A stretch of DNA of 64,000 bases from a virus (Duplodnaviria; Heunggongvirae; Uroviricota; Caudoviricetes): the IMG/VR virus record IMGVR_UViG_3300042346_001601; one strand, given 5' to 3'. The notes beneath the pieces are model-generated. The model was not told where the DNA came from and searched no databases. It was given only the letters and a program-made list of their open reading frames with translations. Both the position numbers and the translations under genes were made by a program. Positions 12,913 to 29,339 of the stretch are shown here, piece by piece (within the stretch, counting starts at the first letter, position 1; each line of letters starts with the position of its first letter).

Positions 12913-12914
12913 TT

Positions 12915-13199: not shown

Positions 13200-13438
13200 T
13201 TACTGTCAATTTTAAGATTTTCAATTTCGTGCTTTACTTGCATAAGATATGGGCTTAGTGTTAATTCGGCAATATCTTTTGCAATACCCATAGAGTGAAG
13301 TGCTGAAGCATATACCTCCATCATCTCATCAATTGCAATTAATGAACATTTTTTAGCATTATCTTCGGGATATGGTCCATCTGCGACCAGCTGATAATAT
13401 TTGTAGTAAAGTTCTTCTGATTTTTCTTTAGGTGTCAT
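13196..13438 (-). CDS. hypothetical protein
   Basis: minus-strand tiled ORF preceded by conserved leader motif. Confidence 0.45.
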   Translation of the reverse strand: MTPKEKSEELYYKYYQLVADGPYPEDNAKKCSLIAIDEMMEVYASALHSMGIAKDIAELTLSPYLMQVKHEIENLKIDSK

Positions 13439-13665
13439 TTCTCTTTGGTGTTAAATGGTTGATTTCTGATTTCAGACTCAAGTTTCATCATATCAATAAA
13501 ACATTGTCTTAGATGTGAATACATTCGTCCAAGTTCAAACCCATATACAATATCGTCCCTTTCACCACTACATAAGTCTAGAACTAATTGGGCATTGAAT
13601 TCAAACATTTTCTTGAAGTGTTCAAGTTTTTCTATTTGTTCTTGAGTAATAAGATATTCTTTCAT
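13435..13665 (-). CDS. hypothetical protein
   Basis: minus-strand tiled ORF preceded by conserved leader motif. Confidence 0.45.
   Translation of the reverse strand: MKEYLITQEQIEKLEHFKKMFEFNAQLVLDLCSGERDDIVYGFELGRMYSHLRQCFIDMMKLESEIRNQPFNTKEK
13444..13459 (-). promoter_or_regulatory. conserved leader motif copy 2
   Basis: plus-strand ctttggtgttaaatgg right after start codon of 13196..13438. Confidence 0.35.
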
Positions 13666-13669
13666 GTTT

Positions 13670-13684
13670 ATTTGGTGTTAAAGG
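13670..13684 (-). promoter_or_regulatory. conserved leader motif copy 3
   Basis: plus-strand atttggtgttaaagg right after start codon of 13435..13665. Confidence 0.35.
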
Positions 13685-13690
13685 TTTGAT

Positions 13691-13882
13691 TTATCCCCAT
13701 CCTATTAGTTTGCTAACTTCGCTGGGATTGGGGTGTTTATGCTTCTTTTCACGCATCACTTCGAGATAGTATTTTCCACATTCTCCCATAAACATAGGGT
13801 CTCCAGCTGAAGCAAATCTATATGTGCTAAGAAGTTGTTCATAGTTAGCAGAATCAATCCACTCTTTTTGTTCTTGTGTCAT
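13691..13882 (-). CDS. hypothetical protein
   Basis: minus-strand tiled ORF preceded by conserved leader motif. Confidence 0.4.
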   Translation of the reverse strand: MTQEQKEWIDSANYEQLLSTYRFASAGDPMFMGECGKYYLEVMREKKHKHPNPSEVSKLIGWG

Positions 13883-13887
13883 TTCTA

Positions 13888-13901
13888 TTTGGTGTTAAAA
13901 T
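13888..13901 (-). promoter_or_regulatory. conserved leader motif copy 4
   Basis: plus-strand atttggtgttaaaa right after start codon of 13691..13882. Confidence 0.35.
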
Positions 13902-14540
13902 TTAGTAAGCTTCAGCGTAGATTTCCATATTTCGAAAGTCTGAATAATAACCATCAGTCCAACTTACTCTACGATTGCCACATTGGCACCGGTGGTATTG
14001 TGGATTCCAACCATCACATTCATCTTCACAGTTCTGACCTGAAAAGCCAATGTAACCATCGCCGATTTCAACTTTACGTTTCTCAACTTCTTTTTGGAAT
14101 GCAATATCGTTGGCGATTGAGATTGCAGTTTCTACCGAAAGACCATCACCAAAGGTTCGTCCATTGACCAAACAAAAGGCGATAGCTTCATTGACCAAAT
14201 TAGATTTTTCAGCTTCTCGTTGTTTTAGGAGCTCTGCTTGTTTCTCTTTCTCTTCCTTTTCTTTCACCATTCTCTCACGCATTTCGTAAGTGGATTTGGT
14301 GTTGTAGTAGGAACGAGCCGCTGATTGCAGACGGTCATAAACCTCATTTGGAGTTTTCAACTTTTCCAACTTAGCTTTACTTAAACCAAAGGTACGGCCC
14401 GGAAATTCTTTATTAGCGTTCTTCAATAGTTCGTTGAATTGATTTAGATATTCCTTAGCTTTATCTTCATAAGCTTTAGACAATTCCAAATTTTCTTCTT
14501 TAGTTAGGGTTTCTTTAATTTGATAATACATAACTCTCAT
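13902..14540 (-). CDS. hypothetical protein with coiled-coil middle and Cys-rich C-terminus
   Basis: 212 aa; KEKEEKEKQAELLKQREAEK charged helix; C-terminal CEDECDGWNPQYHRCQCGNRR. Confidence 0.5.
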   Translation of the reverse strand: MRVMYYQIKETLTKEENLELSKAYEDKAKEYLNQFNELLKNANKEFPGRTFGLSKAKLEKLKTPNEVYDRLQSAARSYYNTKSTYEMRERMVKEKEEKEKQAELLKQREAEKSNLVNEAIAFCLVNGRTFGDGLSVETAISIANDIAFQKEVEKRKVEIGDGYIGFSGQNCEDECDGWNPQYHRCQCGNRRVSWTDGYYSDFRNMEIYAEAY

Positions 14541-14745
14541 TTTTTAATTACAAAGTAAAGATAAGTTATTTTTTAATTCCACCCAAACTTTCTATATTAA
14601 TTTTGTGTTAAATTTTTCTATTTTAATTGCTCTTCCACCACAGGATGTAATCATTTTATCACACCAAAATGGTAAAGTAACCCAATTGTAAATAAGATAA
14701 TAAGTCCCACCTTTCCATTTACGATACCATCTATACTGCATTAAT

Positions 14746-14979
14746 TCAAATTTCATTTGCTATACAATTAAAAGTTTCGTTGTAATATTGCTCGTAGGAT
14801 TCCCATTTTTCTTTTTGAACTGCATCAATAGCGCTGTTCCAAGTTTCAGCGTGTTCCTCTTTGTGCATCTCATGGGACTGTACAAATATCCCAATTGTTT
14901 GCATGATTTGCTGGTGTGTTAATATGGTCTCTAATGCCTGTTGTAACCATAAAATACTACTTTGTTTGGTGTTGTTCAT
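14746..14979 (-). CDS. hypothetical protein
   Basis: minus-strand tiled ORF. Confidence 0.4.
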   Translation of the reverse strand: MNNTKQSSILWLQQALETILTHQQIMQTIGIFVQSHEMHKEEHAETWNSAIDAVQKEKWESYEQYYNETFNCIANEI

Positions 14980-15215
14980 TGTTGTTTTAATTTCATTTTA
15001 TGCCCGAAATAAATAAATTCCGTTATGTTATTATCGGGACTAAATATATTCACACCGTCAAATGGTGGTTGTAAATAATGATTAGCTAATTCGTTGAAAA
15101 AAATTTGTAACTCTTGGCTATCAAATTCAAATGTTAAATTTTCCGGAATATCAATTCCAGCCGACTTTAATTGATTGATGAATTTTATCAATGCACTTTC
15201 CGAATCAACCCTCAT
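14976..15215 (-). CDS. hypothetical protein
   Basis: minus-strand tiled ORF, ATGA overlap. Confidence 0.4.
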   Translation of the reverse strand: MRVDSESALIKFINQLKSAGIDIPENLTFEFDSQELQIFFNELANHYLQPPFDGVNIFSPDNNITEFIYFGHKMKLKQQ

Positions 15216-15475
15216 TTGTTACCTCCTTGTATTTGATCACGCATCCATTTCGCTCCCTCAATAAAACTACCAAGGTTATCTCCTGCTGTATCATCATTGT
15301 TTGACCATTTCATTGAGTTTTTATCAAATACCCAATTACTTGCATTGTGATATATCTCATCCTCATTTGGTAGTTCGATGGGTTTAAGTGTAACCATTAA
15401 TAAATATGCTAGCTCAGGGTTAGCTTTTGCTTGAGCAATTGCAATACTCATTTGTTCTTCTGTGTATAGTTTCAT
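15212..15475 (-). CDS. hypothetical protein, MKLYTKE-family (start moved to internal Met)
   Basis: Internal MKLYTEEQ with the same conserved nucleotide leader as 9932..10306; the start at 15475 creates an ATGA overlap with the stop of upstream ORF 15472..15753. Confidence 0.45.
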   Translation of the reverse strand: MKLYTEEQMSIAIAQAKANPELAYLLMVTLKPIELPNEDEIYHNASNWVFDKNSMKWSNNDDTAGDNLGSFIEGAKWMRDQIQGGNK

Positions 15476-15753
15476 AGATTTTGTTTTATCTTTTGATCCC
15501 AAAAAAATCTTAAACATCCCCAGTAAATAAGCACCAAACATTGCCACTTGGGTACCCATCCGGCCATGGGGGATTCAGTTTTCCACAAAAAATAGGTGTG
15601 GATGTTTTCAGAGTCATTCCAATGTCTCTCAGAGGGTGCAAATTCAATGAGAACAGTGGACCACCTTGCTCTAAAATAAAAATAGTGGTTTAAAAATTCT
15701 CCCTCTGCCTGGATAGGACACTGACCGGAGGGTTTGTAGAGCCATTTTATCAT
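15472..15753 (-). CDS. hypothetical protein
   Basis: minus-strand tiled ORF. Confidence 0.4.
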   Translation of the reverse strand: MIKWLYKPSGQCPIQAEGEFLNHYFYFRARWSTVLIEFAPSERHWNDSENIHTYFLWKTESPMAGWVPKWQCLVLIYWGCLRFFWDQKIKQNL

Positions 15754-15818
15754 TTTTTTTGGATATGCCGGACGTAGTTAAGATTTCCAAATTATTCGCA
15801 GTACTTTGACAAGATCTA

Positions 15819-16178
15819 TCAAATCTTTTTCCTCCGTGATAGACATATCTTCTCCTTCAAAAGGAAATCCGGATTTTTAGCAACGCACTCCCAGAATTCT
15901 TGCTCGGTCATCAGACGAGTGCAATTGTTGACTGGATCATCGACGTGGAGTGAATAGTCTACCTCTTCCATCCCTCCGGCCACGCGAACATACTCTTGAT
16001 ACAGGTTTTCGGAGGGTGTAACGGGCTCGTGGTCATTTAATAGATCTACTTCTAGACCTTCACTGAATAGATCTAGACCTTTATAATCAGGGTTGTTCTC
16101 GTGCATGTAGGTTATGCCTTTTACCCAGAGTAGGGTAATCACCACGGCAGCAATAAAAATTATCAGAAAAGGAGACAT
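15819..16178 (-). CDS. hypothetical membrane-anchored protein
   Basis: N-terminal TM helix MSPFLIIFIAAVVITLLWV. Confidence 0.45.
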   Translation of the reverse strand: MSPFLIIFIAAVVITLLWVKGITYMHENNPDYKGLDLFSEGLEVDLLNDHEPVTPSENLYQEYVRVAGGMEEVDYSLHVDDPVNNCTRLMTEQEFWECVAKNPDFLLKEKICLSRRKKI

Positions 16179-16197
16179 GAAAAAATGTTTTAATTTG

Positions 16198-16437
16198 TTA
16201 TAAACTGTCAGGAGGGATAAATTTATTTTTCTTCAAATGTATTAAATAATTTTCAGATTCCTCCAAAGAACTTAAAGAAGTCAAGTAAATTTTTATATCA
16301 TCTCTTAAAAGAGAACACCTGTACTCTTTTTCAAAATGAGTGCTGGTAGAATTGTGGTAGGTGTCGGTAAGAATTAGAATCTCTCCCATGACTCCATCTT
16401 CTAAATCAAGATATCTAACGTTTTCTTCTTTCTCCAC
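16198..16437 (-). CDS. hypothetical protein
   Basis: minus-strand tiled ORF. Confidence 0.4.
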   Translation of the reverse strand: MEKEENVRYLDLEDGVMGEILILTDTYHNSTSTHFEKEYRCSLLRDDIKIYLTSLSSLEESENYLIHLKKNKFIPPDSL

Positions 16438-16438
16438 T

Positions 16439-16723
16439 TTAGGAATTTAGAGCAATGTAGGTGGGTCCTTGACCAGGATAAGTTTGGGCCGGAGCATCTT
16501 CCACAACCTCGACTATTTTCCAATTTTTGTTCATCTCTTCTAAAAGTGATCTGTGAAATTTTTTCGTTTCCGGGGGTGAATCTAGATCTTCTAACAGAAT
16601 AGAACACTTGGTGATTTCTGCAACCCTTATCTTCTTTAAATTAGAAGGAAATCCGGCAGCGTCTTTCAGATCCACCAATCTGCCGATAATGTAGATCTTG
16701 TTGAGATTGAACTGATTAGTCAT
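16439..16723 (-). CDS. hypothetical protein
   Basis: minus-strand tiled ORF, 8-nt overlap with rpiB stop. Confidence 0.4.
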   Translation of the reverse strand: MTNQFNLNKIYIIGRLVDLKDAAGFPSNLKKIRVAEITKCSILLEDLDSPPETKKFHRSLLEEMNKNWKIVEVVEDAPAQTYPGQGPTYIALNS

Positions 16724-17156
16724 TGAAAATAGGAATTAAATTAACTCTTTGTTCGTGTCTTCCCCCTTCGAAGGGAGTTTCTAAGAAGGTCTTTACTATT
16801 TTCCAGGCCTCGCTGGAGGAGATAAACCTGGCAGGTAGACATAAAATGTTGGCGTCGTTGTGGCTTCTGGCCAGTCTAGAAACTTCCTCGTTCCAACACA
16901 AAGCTGCTCTGGACCTATTCCACTTATTAGCAGCCATGGTCATTCCGTTGCCCGAACCACAAATTAGAATTCCAATGTTGTTATAAAGGGTTCCTGACAG
17001 TGAATGAGCGATGTTTGGATAGTCTACTGACTCTTCAGAATGGGTACCGAAATCTCTGACCGTGAATTCGTTTTCTTGAAGCTTGTCGATGATAAAACTT
17101 TTGAGCTCATAGCCTGCATGATCCGAGCCAATGTAAATTGTTTTTTTATTTGTCAC
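16716..17156 (-). CDS. rpiB: ribose-5-phosphate isomerase B (RpiB/LacAB family)
   Basis: IYIGSDHAGYELK...DFGTHSEESVDYPNIA...GILICGSGNGMTMAANK...RAALCWN...ARSHNDANILCL...PFEGGRHEQRV closely matches RpiB family signature. Confidence 0.85.
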   Translation of the reverse strand: MTNKKTIYIGSDHAGYELKSFIIDKLQENEFTVRDFGTHSEESVDYPNIAHSLSGTLYNNIGILICGSGNGMTMAANKWNRSRAALCWNEEVSRLARSHNDANILCLPARFISSSEAWKIVKTFLETPFEGGRHEQRVNLIPIFND

Positions 17157-17227
17157 GTGGGATTTATTTTTTATGAATTTGAATAAGGTATTTATCTTAT
17201 AGGAGAAATATTCTGATTATTTCTTAC

Positions 17228-17479
17228 TTAGTCCTCTGTCCTGCAATTTTTTCTGAATAAATGAACTAATTGGATCAATTCATCGTCAAATTCAATTCTT
17301 AAATGAGAAGAAAAAGTAGAAATAACAAACCAGGAATTGGAATCGTCTGTGAAAGGCAGGCCCTGCAAGGTAAAATCTGGAAAATTGAGCACATAGTGGG
17401 GACAGCACGTTTCCCCGGTCTCGTCATCGATCATGTAATCTTTGTCAAATCCCAGGGAGATGAGGGTTGATTCTAGCAT
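17228..17479 (-). CDS. hypothetical protein
   Basis: minus-strand tiled ORF. Confidence 0.4.
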   Translation of the reverse strand: MLESTLISLGFDKDYMIDDETGETCCPHYVLNFPDFTLQGLPFTDDSNSWFVISTFSSHLRIEFDDELIQLVHLFRKNCRTED

Positions 17480-17481
17480 GT

Positions 17482-17694
17482 TTATTCGGGATTTAGGGCT
17501 TGTTTTTGACCTTCGGAAATACCCATCTCGTAGGCTTTTTGGAGATCTGATAAAGTCTGTTCGTATAATTCCCTGTAAATAGACAGGATTTCATTTTTCT
17601 TGTCGTCCGGAATTTCTCGGAGGGCTTTGAAAATCAACTTCGTGATCGGGATTCCCGTCAGGGAAAGATCCTCTAGATAAACTAATTTTTTCAT
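17482..17694 (-). CDS. hypothetical protein
   Basis: minus-strand tiled ORF. Confidence 0.4.
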   Translation of the reverse strand: MKKLVYLEDLSLTGIPITKLIFKALREIPDDKKNEILSIYRELYEQTLSDLQKAYEMGISEGQKQALNPE

Positions 17695-17713
17695 TTTTTT
17701 TATTTTTTTAATA

Positions 17714-18247
17714 TTAATCCCACCAAGATTTCAACCCAGTGTTTGTATCCTTTAATATTTCAAATAGTTCATCCCATTCATCGTTTTCTATTTTAAGTGA
17801 ACACTCAGATACTTTAGAATTATGTTCACTCTCTTCTTTAGTTAGGTTATCTTTCAATGTAAATAATTCAGAATTATCGGTTAGTGGAACAAACTTAAAT
17901 TCTCTATGAACTAATTTACCACACTCTTTTTCGGCCAATTCAATATAAGAATCATCTAAGTGATTAGACAAAATTTGGATAGCCCTTCGCATTTTGGTAA
18001 TTTTTACAAGCCGTGTCTCATTAACCTCCGAACCTTTGGTTTCTATACCATTTGCCATATCACTAATTCCTATTTTCATAAAATGTAATAAACTATGATT
18101 ATCCCACCATTTAAACTCATATAGGGGTTTTCTGAACATCCAAATGTTCTTAAAGAAGTTGATACACATTTTAATAGGGTATATAAAATCGTTATAGTAA
18201 TACTTAACCATATAGCTGTTTAAATATTTGCATTCGTTCTTCCTCAC
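17714..18247 (-). CDS. hypothetical protein
   Basis: 177-aa ORF. Confidence 0.45.
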   Translation of the reverse strand: MRKNECKYLNSYMVKYYYNDFIYPIKMCINFFKNIWMFRKPLYEFKWWDNHSLLHFMKIGISDMANGIETKGSEVNETRLVKITKMRRAIQILSNHLDDSYIELAEKECGKLVHREFKFVPLTDNSELFTLKDNLTKEESEHNSKVSECSLKIENDEWDELFEILKDTNTGLKSWWD

Positions 18248-18581
18248 TCATTGCTCGGGGTAACTCATAATCATCAGTTCGATTTTCTTCCAAGTATTGG
18301 TGTAGTTCTTCTACCGTTCGACATAATTCGTCCCCATCTTTATCTGTCATTTTCAAATCCATTCGTTCTCCCCATTCTTTTTCCCAACACCACCAATCAA
18401 ATGTTTCTTTACCTTCTTTGCCATAGATTGAACCAATTAACATAGAGATAGCACTTTCTAATGGGTCAACAAAATTTATAAGGTCAACACCTGATTTATA
18501 CGCTTTATCTAAGCTTTCTTGTTGTTCTTTAAGTTTAGAAACAATTTCTTTGAACACTTCTAGTTTTATGCTGTAATCCAT
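18204..18581 (-). CDS. hypothetical protein
   Basis: 125-aa ORF. Confidence 0.45.
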   Translation of the reverse strand: MDYSIKLEVFKEIVSKLKEQQESLDKAYKSGVDLINFVDPLESAISMLIGSIYGKEGKETFDWWCWEKEWGERMDLKMTDKDGDELCRTVEELHQYLEENRTDDYELPRAMSEEERMQIFKQLYG

Positions 18582-18871
18582 TCTGTTTTACTTTTAAGTT
18601 GGATACTTTCACTTCCATCATATTCATTGATAATAAAATCTTCTCCTTCATCTACCCACACTACGACTAAATCTTCAACCCCACCGATGTACGTGTCCAT
18701 ATAGGTATTTCTAGCATACTCGTTTGCACCATCAAAATCTTCTGATCCAACCAACTCTACTAACTTTGGATCAAATATTGCCTCAATGGGCGCTCCCCAA
18801 GTGTAGAACCCAGCTCCGTATCCACGGGAAATAAGAACTGCTACTTTACCATCTTTAATTAATTTATTCAT
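18566..18871 (-). CDS. hypothetical protein
   Basis: 101-aa ORF. Confidence 0.45.
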   Translation of the reverse strand: MNKLIKDGKVAVLISRGYGAGFYTWGAPIEAIFDPKLVELVGSEDFDGANEYARNTYMDTYIGGVEDLVVVWVDEGEDFIINEYDGSESIQLKSKTEWITA

Positions 18872-18875
18872 AGTT

Positions 18876-19193
18876 TTACATATTTTTAATTTCTTTTTCT
18901 ACCTCCACCCAGAATGTTGTTTTGGGATGGTTTGCCCAATAACAGGTTTCCGATTCTTCGTCATCATCTTTCATAAACTGGAATATTTCACCAACAACAG
19001 CAAGAGCTGATTCTTTCCATTTTGGATTTGAATAGAAACTTTTGTATTCACCGGTTGTTACTTCATAAACTTTATTAGTTGAAAATCCAACCGACCCGAC
19101 TATTTGAAGTGCCTTTTCTTTTGGTGTAATTGTGATTGGTTTGTATTTAGACATAGAATTTTTTTGAGTTAAAGAGCTTATTTTCAAGCTCAC
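18876..19193 (-). CDS. hypothetical protein
   Basis: 105-aa ORF. Confidence 0.45.
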   Translation of the reverse strand: MSLKISSLTQKNSMSKYKPITITPKEKALQIVGSVGFSTNKVYEVTTGEYKSFYSNPKWKESALAVVGEIFQFMKDDDEESETCYWANHPKTTFWVEVEKEIKNM

Positions 19194-19573
19194 AGAACAA
19201 TTTCGAATCTTTCCTTCATTTGGAGGATTCTTTCGTCAGGTACTCCGTGGACATTCTTTCCCCCGTGTCTGTTTTCAACAATCAATGAAAAAACGGTGAA
19301 TCCGTATTTTTCTGCAAGTTCATAATAGGCCGACATTTCCCATTTTCTGGTGAAAGTGTTGGACACGACTACCTTATCTTCTCCTCTACTCATAGCAGTT
19401 TCTGCAGTTTTTTTGCACCACTCGTGAGCTTCTTTGAGCAGAAGAGGATCAAATTTATATTCGTTGTCTTTCATGAAGAACATATCAGCCTCGACGTGAG
19501 AACCCCCGATTGCTTTGGCTAGGGTGGATTTTCCAGCCCCTGGGCAGCCTCTTAATAAAAATAAAGATTTCAT
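19190..19573 (-). CDS. P-loop polynucleotide kinase-like protein (T4 Pnk kinase-domain-like, stand-alone)
   Basis: Walker A LLRGCPGAGKSTLAK, compare T4 Pnk N-terminus LTIGCPGSGKSTWA; small (127 aa) kinase encoded directly downstream of the HAD phosphatase. Confidence 0.6.
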   Translation of the reverse strand: MKSLFLLRGCPGAGKSTLAKAIGGSHVEADMFFMKDNEYKFDPLLLKEAHEWCKKTAETAMSRGEDKVVVSNTFTRKWEMSAYYELAEKYGFTVFSLIVENRHGGKNVHGVPDERILQMKERFEIVL

Positions 19574-19591
19574 CCTTTTGTCGAATTTGTT

Positions 19592-20047
19592 TTAGAATGC
19601 TCCGTAGTTAACTTGAAAACAGGCAATACCTTGGTCCCTCCACATTTTTACTACTTTATCTCTATCATCATAAACGCACATTATTTCATTTCCCTCCGAG
19701 ATAAATTTATCCATCCATGCCTTCTTCAAGACCTCGTCCGGGGTGTAATCGTGATGTGATCTCATTTGGAGGAAATCAGGCACGATCCCTTGATCACCCA
19801 ACCACTGCTCGGTTTCTTTTCTGGAAATCTCATCTCTCCCCGAGAAAATCCCTACCTTTAATCCTGCCTGCTTTAAAAACTGAAAAGTTCGGATAACTGG
19901 TAAATTGGGCTCATCCAATTGGATGTTCTCAGGAGCAAAAAATTCTTTCCAGTTCAATTTGCCAGTTGGCAGAGTAGCCTTGGATCTTCTTTTTTCGATC
20001 AGAGCCAGGGTTCCATCCAGATCGAAAATAACCGATAATTTTTTCAT
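19592..20047 (-). CDS. HAD-superfamily phosphatase, polynucleotide 3'-phosphatase-like (Pnk phosphatase-domain-like, stand-alone)
   Basis: Motif I VIFDLDGTL (DxDxT), motif II FSGR, motif III K...YDDRD; same architecture as T4 Pnk C-terminal domain. Confidence 0.7.
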   Translation of the reverse strand: MKKLSVIFDLDGTLALIEKRRSKATLPTGKLNWKEFFAPENIQLDEPNLPVIRTFQFLKQAGLKVGIFSGRDEISRKETEQWLGDQGIVPDFLQMRSHHDYTPDEVLKKAWMDKFISEGNEIMCVYDDRDKVVKMWRDQGIACFQVNYGAF

Positions 20048-20054
20048 GATTTTA

Positions 20055-20747
20055 TTAATTTGATAAACTTAAAGGCAAAAAGAGAAGTGTGGGATTTTTC
20101 TTTTGAATGTCGACATCTGGATATTTTTTTCTAAATTCCATAACGTCAAACTTTTTGGTGATTAAATGGTGGCCGTTTTTGGTGGGGATAATAGCCTCTA
20201 TTTTCGGACCCACCTTGTGGCCGACAGGAAACCCAGCTTCATCAAAGTCGACTACGGTGATGGGTTGGCATCGATACTCCAAATAGGACATCATCATAGG
20301 ACTTGGAGTTTGTGACCCATCAACATCCACAATCCATCTTTTCTCGTGGGTTTGGATTTGGCCAACAACAGAATCGAAAAGATTTTTTTGGTTCGCTTGA
20401 CCATTTCGAATTCTTTCTGCCAAGGCAACCATCATGCTCAAAGAAACATCTTGGTGATTTTGCTTTTGAACATGAATATAAGCACGGGCTTTAAACAGCT
20501 CGCACAATTGTTTAATTTCATCGTATCTACGGTCTAAGTGGTCAACACTTTCGATACAGTAGGTTTTGATTGTTCTGACCGATTGGTGGTTGTCCCTTTC
20601 TTCTCCGGGCTGGTCCTTTTTTCTCTTTAACACATAGAGCATGTAAAAATCTCCAGTTTTCTCAAAATTGAGCAGAGGTTTTATTAGATGAAGGTTGTCG
20701 ATCATGGTGTTGTAATTTGTAGCAAATATACGAAAAAGATCCGACAA
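20055..20747 (-). CDS. hypothetical protein
   Basis: 230-aa ORF immediately downstream of kinase/phosphatase pair; no motif recognised. Confidence 0.5.
   Translation of the reverse strand: MSDLFRIFATNYNTMIDNLHLIKPLLNFEKTGDFYMLYVLKRKKDQPGEERDNHQSVRTIKTYCIESVDHLDRRYDEIKQLCELFKARAYIHVQKQNHQDVSLSMMVALAERIRNGQANQKNLFDSVVGQIQTHEKRWIVDVDGSQTPSPMMMSYLEYRCQPITVVDFDEAGFPVGHKVGPKIEAIIPTKNGHHLITKKFDVMEFRKKYPDVDIQKKNPTLLFLPLSLSN
20723..20732 (-). promoter_or_regulatory. putative promoter element (sense CGTATATTTG) upstream of ORF 20055..20747
   Basis: exact match to Bacteroidetes -7 consensus TAnnTTTG (TATATTTG). Confidence 0.3.
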
Positions 20748-20825
20748 AAAATAAAACCAAAAAAGGTTTAAATTTGGATCGGCAAAAATTATTCCATTTC
20801 AGAATTTACTTAAAGAGTCTTATTT

Positions 20826-21215
20826 TTAGTTTTGGTCTTTTTGAGACTCAGCGTTTTTGAAAATAAATATAAGATGCATTACTAACATTAAGAAGTTTAA
20901 TAATTTAAAAAATACATCTCCAACACCGATATTTTCAAATACCAGGACACACCCGATTACAACACTCACCCCGGTCCATAGATTAGCATTTTTAGAATCA
21001 ATAGCATTTGCTCTTTTATAAATGGTCGCAAAGGTATACCAATAAACTAAAAATAACATACCACATCCTAATAGTAACACTATTATATTTAACTCCCATC
21101 CCACACCACATGTGAACCCAGCTAGGTACTGCAAAATATTTGCAAGAATAGACCTTAAAAAATAAGTGGTACCGCCAATTCGACCAGAGAAGTCAAAATA
21201 TTTATTTTTAATCAT
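20826..21215 (-). CDS. hypothetical multi-pass membrane protein
   Basis: 3-4 predicted TM helices; start placed at internal Met (MIKNKYFDF) to avoid 98-nt overlap with upstream ORF. Confidence 0.45.
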   Translation of the reverse strand: MIKNKYFDFSGRIGGTTYFLRSILANILQYLAGFTCGVGWELNIIVLLLGCGMLFLVYWYTFATIYKRANAIDSKNANLWTGVSVVIGCVLVFENIGVGDVFFKLLNFLMLVMHLIFIFKNAESQKDQN

Positions 21216-21603
21216 CGTTTCTTTCTTTGATTGAATCTGATGAAGAATCAGGAGGAATTGCACCCCATATTTTCGCAAAATCCTTGTCTGATATTGAACG
21301 AGCAATAAAGTCGGATTTCGTGAGTGGATCGTTCAGAGTGTACATCCAGGCGTTGTAGTACTTTTGGTAGGCAGAATCCATTCTTGATATTTGTGAATTG
21401 GAGGTTGCCAAATCAATCCCGTGATGCACTCCCCTAATAAATTCTTCAATCTCCTGGTTTGAAATTAGGGGCAGGGATTTACCTAAAGCCAAGCCTACCT
21501 CGTTGCCTAAATCCGACACTTCACCATTAGGGTAGGAAACATTTTTTAAGTGGTCTGAAATTTCCTCTGTTATCCTTTTGAAGTCGAAGTTTTGGTAGGT
21601 CAT
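21208..21603 (-). CDS. hypothetical protein
   Basis: 131-aa ORF. Confidence 0.45.
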   Translation of the reverse strand: MTYQNFDFKRITEEISDHLKNVSYPNGEVSDLGNEVGLALGKSLPLISNQEIEEFIRGVHHGIDLATSNSQISRMDSAYQKYYNAWMYTLNDPLTKSDFIARSISDKDFAKIWGAIPPDSSSDSIKERNDD

Positions 21604-21620
21604 TTTTTATGATAACTTTC

Positions 21621-22261
21621 TTAATTTATTTTCTGAAATGTGGTAACCAGATCTGTTGTAAGTGGAGATGGACTGCACTGAACCTGCTGAACGATCTTAA
21701 AACCAAGTCGATGAAGTTCTTTGTTAAGTTCTTCATGATCTAGATTTGCTCTGCCACCCTTGTTTTTAAAGGACAGATCTTCACCTCCTCCAAACCAGGC
21801 GTGATGCAAAGTTGCCTTTCCCCCTATATTTAAAACTCGATGCATTTCCGGCAGATAATCTCGAATAATATCCCAGTGAATATGAACAAAAGAATCGAAG
21901 GAAACAATTGCATCGAAGGATGAACTTGGGAAGCAGGTCAAAGATTTTCCATCGTTCATGTGGTAACCGTGGATTCTATCTCCAAATCTATCTAAACAAA
22001 ATTTAAGAGGAACAGAGTTGTATTCAACCAAACTCAGGGAAGGACAGTGATTCAAGAAAAATTCTGTGATTCTACCACCTCCGGCGCTATTTCTAAATTT
22101 CTATTTCCCAGATGGGGAACATAAAGAGGATAAATTAGATCAGTCCAAAGCTGCTCAGGGGAAGAAAAATTAGTTGACCAGTATTTAAGATCGTTTTTAT
22201 TTTCCCAAATTGCAGGATCATTCCAGAATTTCTGCTCTTCTAAATTGATATGGACTTGCAC
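21621..22261 (-). pseudogene. class I SAM-dependent methyltransferase interrupted by a frameshift inside motif I
   Basis: ORF 22052..22261 ends ...NRNLEIAPEVV and alternate frame continues SAGGGRITEFFLNHCPS... into ORF 21621..22055 (..FDAIVSFDSFVHI..VLNIGGKATL). Joining them restores motif I (N)LEIGAGGG. Either sequencing error, programmed frameshift or decay. Confidence 0.5.
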
Positions 22262-22264
22262 TAG

Positions 22265-23335
22265 CTATTCGTTTTTAAGTAAAAATCTGTTGCTGATGAC
22301 CTTGAAAGAAATAGTTGTGTCCATGCTGCGAATGACCAATCCTTCCCTCTCGGCATTGGGGTTGAGAACAGATTTCCCTTCAGTCTGCTGTAAGAGTTCT
22401 TCGATGGTGTCTGGTAGAAGAAACTCAGTCCCGAGAATCGGTACGGTCTCAAATCCTAAGTCTTCCATAAGGGAGATAAAAGATCTGAGGTTGAATCTTT
22501 CCTGTTTATCAATGTCAAAAGCATTGTAGAAACGAACGGTATGACCTTTGAGCTTGTAAGGATTCTTCTGAATTCCTTCCCCGATCAATTCACCCTGAAT
22601 GCAAAGGTTAAGACCAGTATCCAGTAGCTTCTTCTTGATGTCCATTTCACGGGCCACTTTCCAGAAAGTGTTTTCCCGCTTAGGCCGTTCGATCCCATCA
22701 TCGCACAGTTCCGTTCCTGACACAAATTCACCTGGTTCTGCCAACTCGAGATTTCTAGAGCAAACCCCAAATTCACCGTCTTTGACATAAAATGATGCGG
22801 AACTGCCGTCCAACTTTTCGGTTGCATAGAACTGGTGTTTACTGGTGATCTTCCATTCTTCGTATTCTCTAGACAAATTTTGGACCCTTTCCTCATCGGT
22901 TCGGCGGAGAAAAGAAGGAAAGTAGCCTTTTACTTTGCCAGCCAGTTCGGCGGGAATGGGTGGTTCGTATTTAATCACCCCAAGAATTTCGGTTACATCC
23001 ATGCCAAGATATACATTTCCCCTAACGGGAAGCACATTCAGGGGCATGAGCAATCCCTGGGATAATTCTCCTTTCAAACGGATGGTCTTGAGTCTAAATC
23101 CCTCGACATCTCCCATTTTCTTGAAAGATGATTTTCGGAGAAACTCAAATTCATCCCGGACCGGAAGAAAAGAATCAATCTCAAAATAAACACAGGTATC
23201 TCCAGGTTTAAACTCTCCTTTCTTGGTTACCACCTGCCACCCATCAACAACAGCCAATTCGATGGCGTCTGCTCCTTTGATGGACTTGATCTCCTTGACC
23301 AATCTGATGGAAGCTAATTTTCTGGTTTGTTCCAT
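22265..23335 (-). CDS. ATP-dependent RNA ligase, DraRnl/NgrRnl (Rnl5)-like with N-terminal OB-like domain
   Basis: N-terminus LASIRLVKEIKSIKGADAIELAVVDGWQVVTKKGEFKPGDTCVYFEIDS typical of this ligase family; nucleotidyltransferase motif I ATEKLDGSSASFYV (KxDG). Confidence 0.8.
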   Translation of the reverse strand: MEQTRKLASIRLVKEIKSIKGADAIELAVVDGWQVVTKKGEFKPGDTCVYFEIDSFLPVRDEFEFLRKSSFKKMGDVEGFRLKTIRLKGELSQGLLMPLNVLPVRGNVYLGMDVTEILGVIKYEPPIPAELAGKVKGYFPSFLRRTDEERVQNLSREYEEWKITSKHQFYATEKLDGSSASFYVKDGEFGVCSRNLELAEPGEFVSGTELCDDGIERPKRENTFWKVAREMDIKKKLLDTGLNLCIQGELIGEGIQKNPYKLKGHTVRFYNAFDIDKQERFNLRSFISLMEDLGFETVPILGTEFLLPDTIEELLQQTEGKSVLNPNAEREGLVIRSMDTTISFKVISNRFLLKNE

Positions 23336-23348
23336 ATTATGTAATCAA

Positions 23349-23543
23349 TTAAGACTCGGTTGAAACGGAAGAATCACTTCCTGAAGGAGCAGAAGCCAAA
23401 ATCCACACAAAAAGAGAAATAAGCACCAGTCCAAATCTGTCGTCGTTACTCCAATTTGAAATCATCAGATCCCATCTGATAAATCCAATAATTAAATAGA
23501 GGGAAAATAAAGATTTTAGAGGAGTGATAAACCATTTTTTCAT
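23349..23543 (-). CDS. hypothetical small membrane protein
   Basis: two hydrophobic helices. Confidence 0.35.
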   Translation of the reverse strand: MKKWFITPLKSLFSLYLIIGFIRWDLMISNWSNDDRFGLVLISLFVWILASAPSGSDSSVSTES

Positions 23544-23618
23544 AAGACAATTTTTTTTTATTCTTCTAAACGATTTGAAAGGAGAAAAGTTCCGAATAAT
23601 CTTTCAGATCCTTTCTTT

Positions 23619-24068
23619 CTAAACGCTATGCGGGATGTTAACTCGAACACAGGATTGAGACTGTCCCTCATTCATCAAAAAATTGTTGATGTATCCCATG
23701 ATGTTAGCAGAGCCAATTGGATTGGCCGAATGGGTGTAAACTAAGGGGAAAATAATGCCCGATGATTTTTTCCCTACCCTGCCCTCGAGGGTGTCGTATT
23801 TATTCAGGTAGTAATCGACCAACCATTTTGCACAGTCCATCTCAGTCTTTTCAAGGATGTTTGAGTAGTTGAGCTCGTAATTAGGTTTAACATTGTTGAA
23901 ATATTCCTCCATGACAGTATCACCCAGATCGTGGTCCAGTGAAATGATCTCAATGTTTTCTAATCCTATATCAGTGACAACTTTTACAAACTGCTCGTAA
24001 TTTCGAACAACTATCCAGTTTTCATCGTTTGGGGTTCGAATATCATCTAAGTAAATTCTTTTTTTCAT
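23619..24068 (-). CDS. hypothetical protein, copy A of duplicated gene (paralog of 27968..28417)
   Basis: ~75% aa identity and ~80% nt identity to ORF 27968..28417 (MKKRIYLDDIRTP...ISLDHDLGDT...YTHSANPIGSANIMGYINNF). Confidence 0.55.
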   Translation of the reverse strand: MKKRIYLDDIRTPNDENWIVVRNYEQFVKVVTDIGLENIEIISLDHDLGDTVMEEYFNNVKPNYELNYSNILEKTEMDCAKWLVDYYLNKYDTLEGRVGKKSSGIIFPLVYTHSANPIGSANIMGYINNFLMNEGQSQSCVRVNIPHSV

Positions 24069-24098: not shown

Positions 24099-24230
24099 TA
24101 GTCAGGACAGGATTCGAACCTGTACGTGGGTTGAGTCCTTTGAGAATAACACCTTTCGGTCTCTTGAGTCTCTCCTGCAACATCCCCCACAGCTTTAGCT
24201 TACTTGCTTCTACCATTCCGCCACCTGACT
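24099..24230 (-). tRNA. tRNA-like element, 132 nt: canonical acceptor stem and T-arm, noncanonical/expanded centre
   Basis: Minus-strand RNA 5'-AGUCAGG UG GCGGAAUGGUAGAAGC...ACAGG UUCGAAU CCUGU CCUGACU A-3': 7-bp acceptor stem, U8, tRNA-Leu-like D-loop GGAAUGGUAGA, perfect T-arm GGUUCGAAUCC; but ~80 nt between D- and T-arms (possible intron or long extra arm closed by GUGGG/CCCAC). No anticodon arm could be assigned by eye. Confidence 0.45.
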
Positions 24231-25857: not shown

Positions 25858-26262
25858 TTACTTTTCATCAATTTTAAAATTTTCGAAAAAAAATTTCACC
25901 TCCCTTCCTGTTTCTTCAATCAGCCCATATCTTTTTATGAATTTGTATTGTGTACTGTACTGGTTGAGCGAATTTAAAAAACCTTGAATATTGGATCTAA
26001 ATTGTTCTAACGTGAAAGAATTTTTTTGAATATTACAACTAGAGCAAGCTGGATTATAGTTTTCTAAAATCTCATTTTCTGGATACCTACATGTTCCACT
26101 ATTTACAAACTTACCTTTTTTTCTGTCCCATTTACTGTCCCTGACAATTGGCTGGATATGGTCCGCGTGCCAACTTTTTGTCAAATCACAGCCACAATAT
26201 GCACATTTTCCACCATACTTCTCAAAAATTTTAATCCTATCAGATTTTTTCATCTGTTTCAA
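25858..26262 (-). CDS. HNH endonuclease (small, freestanding)
   Basis: CAYCGCDL...WHADHIQP...NYNPACSSCNIQK = HNHc motif with zinc-binding Cys pairs. Confidence 0.7.
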   Translation of the reverse strand: MKQMKKSDRIKIFEKYGGKCAYCGCDLTKSWHADHIQPIVRDSKWDRKKGKFVNSGTCRYPENEILENYNPACSSCNIQKNSFTLEQFRSNIQGFLNSLNQYSTQYKFIKRYGLIEETGREVKFFFENFKIDEK

Positions 26263-27967: not shown

Positions 27968-28417
27968 TCAAACAAAGTGTGGAATGTTCACACGAACACA
28001 AGATTGAGGTTGACCCTCATTCATCCAAAAATTATTAATGTATCCCATAATGTTGGCAGATCCGATTGGATTTGCCGAATGGGTATACACTTGTGGAAAA
28101 ACGATACCAGATGATTTTTTTTCTGACCTACTTTTCTGAGTAAGGTAATTGTCAAGATAGTGATTGACCAACCACTTAGCACAATCCATTCCCGTCTTTT
28201 CAAGGATGTTATTGTAATCCAATTTGTAGTTTGGACTCACGTTATTGAAATATTCATTCATCGCTGTATCACCCAAATCGTGATCCAAGGAAATTACATC
28301 TATGTTTTCTAATCCTATATTTGTTACCGCTTCCACGAACTCGTCATAATTCCTCACAACCACCCAAATATCTTCTTTGGGGGTTCTAACATCATCTAAG
28401 TAAATTTGTTTTTTCAT
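27968..28417 (-). CDS. hypothetical protein, copy B of duplicated gene (paralog of 23619..24068)
   Basis: MKKQIYLDDVRTP...ISLDHDLGDT...YTHSANPIGSANIMGYINNF. Confidence 0.55.
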   Translation of the reverse strand: MKKQIYLDDVRTPKEDIWVVVRNYDEFVEAVTNIGLENIDVISLDHDLGDTAMNEYFNNVSPNYKLDYNNILEKTGMDCAKWLVNHYLDNYLTQKSRSEKKSSGIVFPQVYTHSANPIGSANIMGYINNFWMNEGQPQSCVRVNIPHFV

Positions 28418-28418
28418 T

Positions 28419-28856
28419 TTAAAGTTTGTTTATGACTTCACCCTTTGAGTTTTCATAGTAAGTTTCATATCCTTTGGAGTTATACTCTATTCTTTCCCAC
28501 ATCCCATTGGAATCCTCTGTTCGACAACCATTATTTGAATATGTAGTTTGTTTCCAATACCCTGTCGAATCTTCATACAAAGTTATATCCCGTTCAGAAT
28601 TGTATTCATACCTTGCCCAAAACCCATTTGACGTAGTTTCTTTAATCCGATTATCATTAGAATCATATTCATATCGTTCCCAACGGTTCTTTGAATTTTC
28701 CCAATAAATTTGGTTACCTCTATCATCTCGTTCACTACTTTCCCAATAACCGGTGGCATCTTCGCTATAAGCAACCTGCCCGTCTTTAGTTTCAATTACC
28801 AAGTCGCCATCTATTTCAAAGTTCCATTTAAGCAACTGTCCAATTGTTTGTGTCAT
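28419..28856 (-). CDS. MORN/YwqK-like repeat protein
   Basis: Repeated units GYWE..ER...G..IYWENS...WERYEYDSN..., ~6 tandem ~22-aa Tyr/Trp/Glu repeats typical of MORN_2 (YwqK) proteins. Confidence 0.5.
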   Translation of the reverse strand: MTQTIGQLLKWNFEIDGDLVIETKDGQVAYSEDATGYWESSERDDRGNQIYWENSKNRWERYEYDSNDNRIKETTSNGFWARYEYNSERDITLYEDSTGYWKQTTYSNNGCRTEDSNGMWERIEYNSKGYETYYENSKGEVINKL

Positions 28857-28876
28857 ATTTTTTATTTTTATTTATG

Positions 28877-28890
28877 GTATAAATATACGA
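28877..28890 (-). promoter_or_regulatory. putative promoter element (sense CGTATATTTATACC) upstream of ORF 28419..28856
   Basis: near-identical to 14-mer at 4588-4601. Confidence 0.3.
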
Positions 28891-28931
28891 ACGAATTTTC
28901 GTGTCTCCAAATGACGGAGTTATAACCAATG

Positions 28932-29279: not shown

Positions 29280-29339
29280 AAGCCCAAATCCAACAGCACA
29301 ATGCCCACGCTATTTGTGCCTTCGCTTATCTGCAAAACG

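Follow-up and report, generated by a model that had tools for sequence, protein, structure and literature searches.

A predicted phage RNA-repair island with a T4-type HAD phosphatase beside a stand-alone kinase of the polynucleotide-kinase clade

The window analysed here, a stretch of 64,000 nucleotides from a virus of the Caudoviricetes (IMG/VR record IMGVR_UViG_3300042346_001601), carries at 18876-23335 a group of genes in which a sequence-only reading had recognised an RNA ligase, a frameshifted methyltransferase, a HAD phosphatase and a P-loop kinase. All four are present there on the minus strand, together with further reading frames, as listed below from the upstream end.

22265-23335, minus strand: Rnl5 (DraRnl/NgrRnl-type) RNA ligase, 356 aa (PF21189, PF09414, TIGR02306, NgrRnl 5cot, phrog_968)
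21621-22261, minus strand: class I SAM methyltransferase, broken by a 1-nt deletion (Methyltransf_11)
21208-21603, minus strand: protein of unknown function, 131 aa, conserved downstream neighbour of the methyltransferase
20826-21215, minus strand: open reading frame for a small protein of unknown function, hydrophobic as read from the sequence
20055-20705, minus strand: o230, 216 aa, of phrog_14949, an uncharacterised phage family with many members
19592-20047, minus strand: predicted stand-alone T4-Pnk-type HAD (DxDxT) polynucleotide 3'-phosphatase, 151 aa (PF25109)
19190-19573, minus strand: stand-alone P-loop kinase of the polynucleotide-kinase clade, phrog_2071 family, 127 aa (AAA_33)
18876-19154, minus strand: uncharacterised protein of about 92 aa, encoded immediately after the kinase

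The assignment of the ligase to the OB-domain DraRnl/NgrRnl type is confirmed by a score of 188 bits (cutoff 151) against TIGR02306 RNA_lig_DRB0094 and by a full-length alignment with Naegleria NgrRnl (5cot, 1.7e-73), in which residues 4-355 pair with residues 4-337 of 340. The protein also matches PF21189, the N-terminal OB domain (1.9e-38), PF09414 (1.7e-24) and phrog_968 (4.7e-92), and is composed of an OB-like domain at the N terminus and a nucleotidyltransferase domain with KLDG as motif I, with no C-terminal appendage. No natural substrate is known for ligases of the Rnl5 type (PMC4408790).

A distance of 2.2 kb, with four genes that have other functions or none assigned, separates the ligase from the phosphatase-kinase pair. 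The phosphatase matches PF25109 HAD_PNKP at 2.6e-30 and 106 bits, other HAD families reaching 25 bits at most, as well as phrog_415 and phrog_505 (about 6e-36), and its top PDB matches are Pnkp1 (4xrp, 1.4e-17) and T4 Pnk (1ltq, 2.7e-9). Residue-level alignments with these structures show conservation of the DxDxT, SGR, Lys and DD positions: D9 and D11 pair with Asp165 and Asp167 of T4 Pnk, SGR69-71 with Ser211-Arg213, K108 with Lys258 and D127/D128 with Asp277/Asp278, the T4 residues having described roles in the removal of 3'-, 2'- and 2',3'-cyclic phosphates (PMC3592404). The protein is genuinely homologous to the phosphatase domain of T4 Pnk and Pnkp1. Its closest cultured stand-alone counterpart is encoded by Burkholderia phage Maja, between the genes for a RecD-like helicase and DNA polymerase III epsilon.

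The kinase matches AAA_33 (7.7e-14), phrog_2071 (1.4e-37) and the N-terminal half of phrog_505 (5.7e-8). Its P-loop reads GCPGAGKS, the SNT motif and the lid residue R102 are conserved, and the near-invariant D30 aligns in the family alignment with Asp38, the general base of Clostridium thermocellum Pnk (CthPnk). Compared with PDB, the family profile ranks polynucleotide kinases and PSTK before any nucleotide kinase (CthPnk 7e-11, T4 Pnk 7e-9, PSTK 5e-8, Pnkp1 1.7e-5, mammalian PNKP 3e-4), and it matches polynucleotide kinases over its own whole length, whereas its similarity to adenylate and deoxynucleoside kinases is confined to the P-loop. These comparisons place the protein, as predicted, in the polynucleotide-kinase clade, and homology thus points for neither enzyme of the pair to the dNMP kinase and nucleotidase against which the sequence-only reading had set its proposal. 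The acceptor of the kinase could nonetheless differ from that of T4 and Cth Pnk, because the family alignment lacks the Arg found at the T4 Arg38 / Cth Arg41 position and has an aromatic residue instead. The family is very large and stand-alone, with 5898 related metagenomic proteins about 127 aa long and 628 phage records.

The least understood component of the set is o230, which lies between the methyltransferase and the phosphatase and had been passed over by the earlier reader. Its predicted fold resembles archaeo-eukaryotic primases (AEP), its invariant residues are R28, K30, A73, R74, D127-x-D129 and G178-x-H180, and it sits within RNA-repair operons of related phages. The three smaller products have no Pfam, PHROG or NCBIfam match. 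In the related loci L025 and L034 the methyltransferase is followed by a homologue of the 131-aa protein, and in L028 such a homologue lies ahead of o230. The 20826-21215 frame, with an internal ATG start (MIKNKYFDF...) read from the sequence, encodes a probable membrane protein. The frame at 18876-19154 probably starts at the ATG at 19154; its product has a homologue of 63% identity in L028, and in L003 a 29% match lies upstream of an Rnl5-like ligase.

The genes at 18876-23335 appear to form only the downstream end of an RNA-repair island of about 16 kb, located at about 19-35 kb of the window, in a phage that is large and uncultured. The interval first delimited does hold the genes ascribed to it but is too narrow, as the island reaches about 35.2 kb and includes a Rnl1-like ligase and more end-processing genes.

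23619-24068, minus strand: cREC (cyclic-phosphate-processing receiver-like) protein, paralogue 2 (PF20274, 5.3e-18)
24099-24230, minus strand: tRNA-like RNA gene (Rfam tRNA, 31.5 bits, gathering score 29)
27968-28417, minus strand: cREC domain protein, paralogue 1 (PF20274, 7.7e-20)
29340-30059, minus strand: calcineurin-like metallophosphoesterase, 239 aa (PF00149, 9e-10)
31548-32408, minus strand: SPFH/Band-7 protein (PF01145, 7.8e-20)
32610-33257, minus strand: HAD phosphatase of the 'Swiss Army Knife' (SAK) RNA-repair type (PF18143 HAD_SAK_2, 2.3e-19)
33267-33983, minus strand: R2K-clade ATP-grasp enzyme (PF18299 R2K_2, 1.7e-27)
34080-35156, minus strand: second RNA ligase, T4 Rnl1-like, 358 aa (PF09511 RNA_lig_T4_1, 1.4e-17; T4 Rnl1 2c5u, 1.1e-10)

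The tRNA-like gene, at which ARAGORN found no tRNA, has conserved acceptor, D and T arms, the expected 17-nt anticodon arm being replaced by a 65-nt insert and a 14-nt variable region; in relatives both ends are conserved and the middles, of 40-110 nt, are unrelated. The metallophosphoesterase (MPE) has a 63% identical orthologue at 11597-12334 of L028, where it follows a YqeY gene and lies some 0.5 kb downstream of that locus's Rnl5 ligase.

The association of the kinase family with such genes extends to other phages. In 11 of 17 IMG/VR loci, and in many cultured phages, the family has an RNA ligase, a phosphoesterase or a cREC gene as neighbour, and the clustering is not a matter of chance; among the cultured phages, those of Aeromonas and Pseudomonas carry it directly next to genes annotated 'RNA ligase 1'. 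With KIN for the kinase, the orders encountered include MPE-KIN-Rnl1 (L009-L011), Rnl1-MPE-KIN-cREC (L012), KIN-Rnl1-cREC (L013, L014) and o230-KIN-Rnl5like-MPE (L006), and among 80 related loci CCA-Rnl1-o230-MPE-KIN was found in 10 and o230-MPE-KIN-Rnl5like in 5. The parts do not form an obligate unit, since the ligase-o230 region of the close relative L028 has neither HAD nor kinase at this site.

The homology of ligase, phosphatase and kinase and these conserved neighbourhoods make RNA end-healing and sealing, as first proposed, the best reading of the locus, and we consider it fairly probable that the phage mends RNA with a modular repair island in which a HAD enzyme replaces the MPE. From the same evidence and the conserved catalytic residues we infer candidate substrates, an order of action and a possible counter-defence role. 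The HAD phosphatase would convert a 2',3'-cyclic or 3'-phosphate into a 3'-OH, perhaps aided or replaced by the SAK-HAD, the metallophosphoesterase and the cREC proteins; the 127-aa kinase would add a phosphate to the 5'-OH. The Rnl5 ligase would then join 3'-OH/5'-PO4 nicks held in duplex, and the Rnl1-like ligase breaks in stem-loops.

Enzymes of the T4 Pnk family work on both DNA and RNA. The HAD and the kinase might clean 3'-phosphate/5'-OH DNA ends arising in repair, recombination or host nuclease attack, with Rnl5 sealing RNA 3'-OH nicks in RNA-DNA hybrids, such as primers. Such a function would fit the weak matches of DNA 3'-phosphatase models to the phosphatase, the position of the Maja HAD_PNKP among replication genes, the primase-like fold predicted for o230, and the tolerance of NgrRnl for DNA on the 5'-PO4 side, a role of Rnl5 in DNA-gap repair having been discussed (PMC4408790). 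It nevertheless seems unlikely, as the surrounding island is made of RNA-repair-associated families and the kinase family recurs not beside DNA repair genes but beside those for Rnl1/Rnl5-type ligases, cREC, SmpB and the CCA-adding enzyme. Alternatively, the kinase could act on a nucleoside, a nucleotide or an ADP-ribose derivative and the HAD as a nucleotidase, both degrading or recycling host immune signals with cREC. A further predicted activity of cREC domains is the processing of cyclic ADPr derivatives (PMC7824862, PMC9503650), the kinase of V5-like phage neighbourhoods is named 'nucleotide kinase' (PMC9503650), NAMPT occurs near the kinase in relatives, and the kinase lacks the Arg with which T4 and Cth Pnk bind the acceptor. 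This small-molecule role is quite improbable in view of the match of the kinase family profile, over its whole length, to polynucleotide kinases, the 106 bits of the HAD against the polynucleotide-phosphatase family and the tight adjacency of the kinase to RNA ligases in many phages.

T4 Pnk is one polypeptide with the kinase N-terminal and the phosphatase C-terminal, whereas the window has two genes, 18 nt apart, with the phosphatase first. Their separation is not an assembly artefact, because both frames recur, in the same o230-HAD-kinase order, in the independent assembly L035 (99.5% nucleotide identity across an ungapped 1323 nt). The pair had been described as a split Pnk, which is right as to separate adjacent frames with the phosphatase first, but the kinase comes from a stand-alone family whose usual neighbour is an MPE, not a HAD. 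Relatives have the order o230-MPE-kinase; in L045 the MPE and the kinase start 674 and 1534 nt past the o230 start, and in the window the HAD and the kinase start 658 and 1132 nt past it. HAD_PNKP was found in none of the 80 related loci. A T4-type HAD gene thus appears to have replaced the usual MPE in situ, between the same flanking genes, and the pair is best read as a juxtaposition, not a fission of T4 Pnk. The breakage of an ancestral fused phosphatase-kinase or kinase-phosphatase gene would agree with the matches of the two frames to the two halves of phrog_505 and with gp179c of Caulobacter phage CcrSC, a fused HAD(N)-AAA_33(C) protein of the same order; it is very unlikely, given that the window kinase resembles the CcrSC kinase domain at the P-loop only, that its family is stand-alone in thousands of sequences and MPE-paired in the related clade, that HAD_PNKP is missing from those 80 loci, and that the HAD's closest relative in IMG/VR (L027, 39% identity) is a fusion in the opposite, T4 order.

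The frameshift noticed in the methyltransferase is real in the present sequence: its two open reading frames, 22052-22261 and 21621-22055, are offset by one base, and alignment with L034 (89.5% identical DNA) shows a single base absent after window position 22083, in the Pro codon of the motif I stretch LEIAPGGGR. In the intact homologues P0241-P0246 (213 aa, 92-41% identity) LEIAPG[SG]GR runs across the break, and the repaired protein spans positions 1-93 of the 95 of Methyltransf_11. The enzyme is probably inactive, or the deletion a sequencing error. The suggestion of a 2'-O-methylation of the repair junction, on the model of bacterial Pnkp/Hen1 systems, has in its favour a position 4 nt downstream of the ligase, repeated in strain L034, but is hardly tenable for a frameshifted gene of a tiny family (6 homologue matches) that matches only the generic Methyltransf_11/25/12, with no Hen1 structure among PDB matches up to E = 1, and that in relatives is linked to the ligase only in the near-identical strain, adjoining no ligase in L025 and L023 and giving way to YqeY and metallophosphoesterase in the post-ligase slot of L028. 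The enzyme is of a generic class I kind, belongs to a variable cassette and probably stands outside the repair chemistry.

Jumbo phages are known to combine ATP-dependent RNA ligases and polynucleotide kinases with cRec and PKN-HAD, SAK-HAD or calcineurin-like phosphatases (PMC7824862), and a T4-like tRNA ligase has been reported in phage neighbourhoods with cREC and a kinase called only 'a nucleotide kinase' (PMC9503650). Comparative genomics has already brought to light modular phage RNA-repair sets (Iyer et al. 2021), and the island in the window is a real but fairly ordinary example of them.

The sequence-only reading had interpreted a HAD phosphatase, a P-loop kinase, an Rnl5-like ligase and a frameshifted methyltransferase at 18876-23335 as a split Pnk accompanied by a ligase and a Hen1-like enzyme. 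All four elements are real at these coordinates, but the interpretation is borne out in part only. Every gene between 18.5 and 36 kb lies on the minus strand, and Pfam scans of the upstream genes revealed a larger island to which the repair set belongs. A second RNA-repair block (27968-35156, minus strand) lies outside the interval first described.

Repair-related features of the window
34080-35156, minus strand: second RNA ligase, T4 Rnl1-like (Pfam; T4 Rnl1 2c5u, 1.1e-10)
33267-33983, minus strand: R2K ATP-grasp protein (Pfam)
32610-33257, minus strand: HAD_SAK_2, a 'Swiss Army Knife' RNA-repair HAD (SAK-HAD; Pfam)
31548-32408, minus strand: Band_7 protein (Pfam)
29340-30059, minus strand: calcineurin-like metallophosphoesterase (MPE; Pfam)
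27968-28417 and 23619-24068, minus strand: two paralogues of cREC, a cyclic-phosphate-processing receiver-like domain (Pfam)
24099-24230, minus strand: tRNA-like gene (Rfam tRNA, 31.5 bits)
22265-23335, minus strand: Rnl5 RNA ligase, 356 aa (PF21189, 1.9e-38; PF09414, 1.7e-24)
20055-20705, minus strand: o230, 216 aa (phrog_14949), directly upstream of the phosphatase
19592-20047, minus strand: HAD_PNKP phosphatase, 151 aa (PF25109, 2.6e-30)
19190-19573, minus strand: P-loop kinase, 127 aa (AAA_33, Pfam)

The phosphatase scores 105.9 bits against the HAD_PNKP model PF25109 (cutoff 27.6), and among solved structures it is closest to Capnocytophaga Pnkp1 (1.4e-17) and the phosphatase domain of T4 Pnk (2.7e-9 to 2.8e-10). 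Its DxDxT motif reads IFDLDGTL, in which D9 and D11 pair with T4 Asp165 and Asp167; in the T4 alignment K108 also pairs with Lys258 and D127/D128 with Asp277/Asp278. The SGR motif at residues 69-71 aligns with SGR of Pnkp1, its equivalence to T4 Ser211 being based on the motif because the phmmer alignment with T4 is locally offset there. In T4 Pnkp these residues remove 3'-, 2'- and 2',3'-cyclic phosphates, D165 and D167 acting as nucleophile and general acid-base (PMC3592404). With its catalytic residues retained, the window phosphatase is on alignment truly homologous to the C-terminal domain of T4 Pnkp.

The kinase belongs to a tightly conserved family of stand-alone proteins of about 127 aa (5898 relatives, the majority 60-75% identical), in which the Walker A motif GCPGAGKS (residues 9-16; consensus GxxGxGK(S/T)) is invariant. 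Because the single sequence retrieved nothing but P-loop noise from PDB, we built a profile from an alignment of 21 family members (identities as low as 30%) and searched PDB with it. The profile retrieved CthPnk, the kinase domain of C. thermocellum Pnkp (7.1e-11, profile positions 3-123 of 127), T4 Pnk (6.7e-9), the L-seryl-tRNA(Sec) kinase PSTK (4.9e-8), Pnkp1 (1.7e-5) and mammalian PNKP (3e-4). Far weaker matches were to adenylate, uridine and deoxynucleoside kinases, mostly through the P-loop region alone, with E values of at least 0.05 for the adenylate and deoxynucleoside kinases. Residue D30 (EAD), which hardly varies in the family, corresponds in the alignment to the VISSDF Asp of CthPnk, a position that is Asn in the D38N entries 4mde and 4mdf. 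The T4 counterpart of this 5'-OH-activating aspartate is Asp35; for CthPnk, Asp38 is described as the general base of the kinase reaction (PMC3902929).

DNA-end processing and small-molecule or ADPr metabolism are two rivals to RNA repair. Since the profile matches polynucleotide kinases first and D30 aligns with Cth Asp38, a dNMP kinase coupled to a nucleotidase appears improbable. 'RNA ligase 1' genes are the direct neighbours of the kinase in cultured phages of Aeromonas and Pseudomonas. The acceptor-binding arginine, T4 Arg38, stands three residues past the catalytic Asp (CRG in Cth); the kinase family has F or Y at this position (ADMFF, ADKYF), and with an aromatic residue in place of the arginine its acceptor-binding mode may differ.

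The phosphatase and kinase are encoded by two separate ORFs, phosphatase first, with a stop codon and 18 nt between them, an arrangement confirmed by an independent assembly with 99.5% nucleotide identity (L035). A 'split Pnk', in which a true fission would have made the two ORFs the halves of one ancestral Pnk, does not fit the comparison with related phages. Through the neighbouring gene o230, we recovered 80 loci from IMG/VR that belong to the same clade as the window. The kinase lies within 10 kb in 15 of them, and in 14 of these 15 an MPE of the kinase-associated type (the family found in locus L003) was detected within a few kb of it; ten of the 80 loci display the compact order CCA-adding enzyme-Rnl1-o230-MPE-kinase. 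HAD_PNKP was found in none of the 80. Measured from the o230 start, the MPE of one clade member, L045, begins at 674 nt and its kinase at 1534 nt; the corresponding offsets in the window are 658 nt for the HAD and 1132 nt for the kinase. The HAD is therefore found precisely where the MPE would be, between the same two flanking genes. The replacement of MPE by HAD is thus best described as an in-situ non-orthologous displacement, as judged from gene order. Neither the window MPE (29340-30059) nor that of L003 gave an informative match to PDB sequences. Kinase neighbourhoods in compared phages, which agree well with one another, are as follows.

Order of repair genes in compared phage loci
L009-L011: MPE-kinase-Rnl1
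L012: Rnl1-MPE-kinase-cREC
L013, L014: kinase-Rnl1-cREC
L006: o230-kinase-Rnl5-like-MPE
L003: Rnl5-like-MPE ... kinase

A similar arrangement in a single polypeptide is gp179c of Caulobacter phage CcrSC (L033 2489-3544; 351 aa, labelled only 'ATPase' in RefSeq), which fuses an N-terminal HAD_PNKP to a C-terminal AAA_33 kinase. It reverses the T4 order and shares the phosphatase-then-kinase order of the window, where two proteins are encoded instead of one. Its phosphatase is 44.5% identical to that of the window, but its kinase domain resembles the window kinase at the P-loop only; the window pair is therefore best read as a juxtaposition of modules from two lineages and not a fission product. 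Three forms of HAD_PNKP are seen in phages, namely a fusion with the T4 order (L027), a fusion with the reversed order (CcrSC gp179c) and a separate protein (Burkholderia phage Maja).

The ligase of the sequence-only reading was correctly placed in the Rnl5 (DraRnl/NgrRnl) group. An N-terminal PHA02142 OB-fold domain (PF21189, residues 7-99) precedes the RNA_ligase nucleotidyltransferase domain (PF09414, residues 168-346 of 356), with no C-terminal appendage, and the NCBIfam equivalog TIGR02306 (RNA_lig_DRB0094) is matched at 188 bits, above its cutoff of 151.15. The crystallised Rnl5 of Naegleria, NgrRnl, aligns end to end (1.7e-73, PDB), from ligase residue 4 to 355 (NgrRnl 337 of 340), and in motif I EKLDGSS pairs with KLDGSS of NgrRnl, the motif I lysine (KxDG) being kept. 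Rnl5 is defined by this organisation of an N-terminal domain and a nucleotidyltransferase domain, and phage-encoded members have been noted before (PMC4408790). The window ligase does not differ structurally from this family and is a new sequence in it, the closest GenBank phage record being at most 47% identical.

Hen1-like methylation was the least tenable of the proposals. Homology of the methyltransferase is restricted to generic Pfam models, no Hen1 chain appears among its PDB hits up to E = 1, and the best of these (E >= 0.056) are unrelated enzymes that methylate small molecules or rRNA. Its gene is also not tied to a ligase: in L025 the homologue is followed by an MPE with no ligase nearby, in L023 no repair genes surround it, and in the close relative L028, YqeY and an MPE follow the ligase in its place. 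The reported frameshift, conversely, is genuine in the assembled sequence, the gene forming two ORFs one base out of frame. Six homologues (92-41% identity) are all intact at about 213 aa, with LEIAPG[SG]GR spanning the break. In the DNA alignment with L034 (89.5% nucleotide identity), which shares the order ligase-methyltransferase-o131 (o131 being a 131-aa ORF), one base is absent after 22083; with this base restored, the protein covers Methyltransf_11 fully. The 1-nt deletion is either a true mutation or an assembly error. Programmed -1 frameshifting at the A_AAT_TTA heptamer just upstream of the break was considered and rejected, given the six intact single-ORF homologues and the plain 1-nt indel inside motif I that distinguishes L034.

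Compared with known systems, the window set is predicted to use the chemistry of T4 tRNA repair (Pnkp/PseT and Rnl1, with Rnl2 as nick sealer), in which a DxDxT HAD removes 2',3'-cyclic or 3'-phosphates, a P-loop kinase phosphorylates the 5'-OH and sealing is ATP-dependent. Like T4, the window encodes an Rnl1-like ligase. Unlike T4 Pnkp, a single polypeptide with the kinase N-terminal, it has separate proteins with the phosphatase encoded first, its kinase comes from another, stand-alone family whose match to the bacterial Pnkp kinase is slightly closer than that to T4 Pnk, and its nick sealer is an Rnl5 and not an Rnl2. The same kinase, phosphoesterase and ligase activities would also be found in the bacterial Pnkp/Hen1 system of C. 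thermocellum and in Pnkp1-Rnl-Hen1 of Capnocytophaga gingivalis. The CthPnkp kinase domain is the top PDB match of the kinase family and Pnkp1 that of the phosphatase, and the three modules of CthPnkp (kinase, MPE and ligase) are adjacent genes in related phages. The bacterial modules are however joined on one polypeptide with an Rnl4 ligase and accompanied by Hen1, whereas the window has separate genes, Rnl5 or Rnl1-type ligases and no Hen1 homologue, its adjacent methyltransferase being generic and broken.

In jumbo phages, ATP-dependent RNA ligases have been reported together with polynucleotide kinases, PKN-HAD, stand-alone SAK-HAD, calcineurin-like phosphatases and ligase-linked cRec (Iyer et al. 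2021, PMC7824862), and tRNA ligase, cREC and kinase genes have also been described as neighbours in phages (Iyer et al. 2022, PMC9503650). The parts list is that of the window island, to which the window's relatives add a CCA-adding enzyme. PKN-HAD is usually fused to an N-terminal kinase (PMC7824862, PMC9503650); in the window it stands alone, directly upstream of a kinase of another family and in the MPE slot of the relatives.

What the sequences document for the repair set is its homology, the conservation of its catalytic residues and that of its gene neighbourhoods. In the proposed mechanism, host RNases would leave 2',3'-cyclic phosphate termini along with 5'-OH ones, the HAD, alone or together with cREC, MPE or SAK-HAD, would produce a 3'-OH, and the kinase would make a 5'-PO4; Rnl5 would close nicks held in a duplex, between a 3'-OH on an RNA strand and a 5'-PO4, and breaks in stem-loops would be sealed by the Rnl1-like enzyme. 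Between 23335 and 18566 the coding strand showed no terminator, and a sigma-70 promoter/terminator scan of 18.4-24.4 kb gave no sites above shuffles. The lack of a terminator together with the tight gene spacing makes co-transcription of the repair genes compatible with the data, not proven.

The gene directly upstream of the phosphatase, o230, starts at M15 of a TTG ORF and belongs to a highly conserved, uncharacterised family of thousands of relatives (about 1500 clusters at 50% identity). No match was obtained with its profile against PDB sequences or with 43 aligned members against Pfam. An AlphaFold2 model built on a diverse alignment reached a pLDDT of 92.7; another from 29 near-identical sequences (pLDDT 53) was discarded. 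The predicted fold is like that of archaeo-eukaryotic primases (AEP), an assignment of moderate confidence because Foldseek found nothing significant for this model in PDB. AEP enzymes carry motif I (DxD), motif II (sGxH) and an acidic residue as motif III. In the 43 diverse members, D127-x-D129 at a strand end and G178-x-H180 within a strand are invariant and appear to resemble motifs I and II, and no third invariant acidic residue was identified.

In ten of the 80 clade loci o230 lies between Rnl1 and MPE-kinase, in others it comes right after the CCA-adding enzyme, and in about 30 none of the tested RNA-repair markers was detected within 10 kb. In Cellulophaga phage phi17:2, a homologue of about 32% identity adjoins the tRNA nucleotidyltransferase (CCA-adding enzyme), and in crAss-like phage cr116_1 an RNA ligase lies 1.5 kb from the homologue. 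A speculative proposal, and on balance a doubtful one, is that o230 may serve phage tRNA-repair operons as an integral enzyme instead of being a replication primase. In such a role it could replace nucleotides missing from broken RNA ends, as predicted for RlaP, Thg1 and CCA enzymes. Burroughs and Aravind reportedly mentioned 'RNA-acting prim-pol domains' in 2016; the portions of Iyer et al. 2021 and 2022 consulted (PMC7824862, PMC9503650) do not mention o230. All homologues in cultured phages come from Bacteroidota-host phages or gut samples; the sources include Cellulophaga, Tenacibaculum, Prevotella Lak phages, one crAss-like phage and uncultured gut phages. This distribution hints at the host range.

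The tRNA-like gene at 24099-24230 was not called by ARAGORN. Its ends (acceptor/D-arm and T-arm/acceptor) are 86-100% identical in six related loci (L082, L050, L045, L117, L025, L078), while the middle, at the anticodon-arm site, consists of 40-110 nt unrelated between phages and without a consistent anticodon. With its hypervariable insert, this conserved RNA could act as a cofactor or decoy in the same repair system as o230; it may act as an RNA-repair cofactor of the b7a-tRNA or YrlA-like kind (10.1101/312249), or as a decoy. A phage tmRNA, also absent from the ARAGORN calls, is encoded further along the window, and elements of a tmRNA system were seen in relatives, with SmpB right after the kinase in L001 and a permuted tmRNA in L006 (3271-3535).

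A DNA-level search of GenBank phages with 18500-23600 gave no match, indicating that the phage has no close cultured relative. Related contigs span 160-350 kb, and the rest of the window looks like a large-phage accessory region, an aminotransferase being also present.

Other features of the window
5438-6409, minus strand: homing-endonuclease-like ORF
16716-17156: RpiB/LacAB-type sugar-phosphate isomerase
25858-26262, minus strand: HNH endonuclease-like ORF
41876-42928: glutamine-synthetase-like protein
57505-57944, minus strand: phage tmRNA (Rfam RF00023, 72 bits, full length)
58049-60514: Clp-like ATP-dependent protease ATPase, 821 aa

The mobile endonucleases may contribute to cassette shuffling around the repair genes, and the region from the ligase to o105 is a gene-exchange hot spot. 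In L028 (IMG/VR, 219 kb), whose ligase is 75% identical to that of the window, the cassette is laid out differently (9995-17933), as ligase-YqeY-metallophosphoesterase-o131 (short)-o230-Band7 (480 aa)-178-aa protein, then five tandem repeat-protein paralogues (YxENSxGxW repeats)-membrane protein-o105; no HAD or kinase is present at this site. The small 'Y.ENS.G.W'-repeat proteins, without Pfam hit, have one copy in the window (28419-28856, minus strand) and form two tandem arrays in L028, upstream (4139-6331) and downstream (15512-17139) of the ligase.

For follow-up, the main interest lies in the AEP-like o230 and the tRNA-like RNA of these operons and not in a 'split Pnk'. The thousands of small, conserved stand-alone polynucleotide-kinase candidates and the stand-alone 3'-phosphatases could serve as compact reagents. 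Modular phage RNA-repair sets have already been described, and the addition made here is a neat example of a displaced phosphatase. In a single clade of phages abundant in the environment, either an MPE or a T4-type HAD fills the 3'-end-healing slot beside a conserved kinase. This provides indirect but clean evidence that both phosphatases do the same job at that slot and that the neighbouring 127-aa kinase is the 5'-end healer, and it illustrates the modularity of phage RNA repair.
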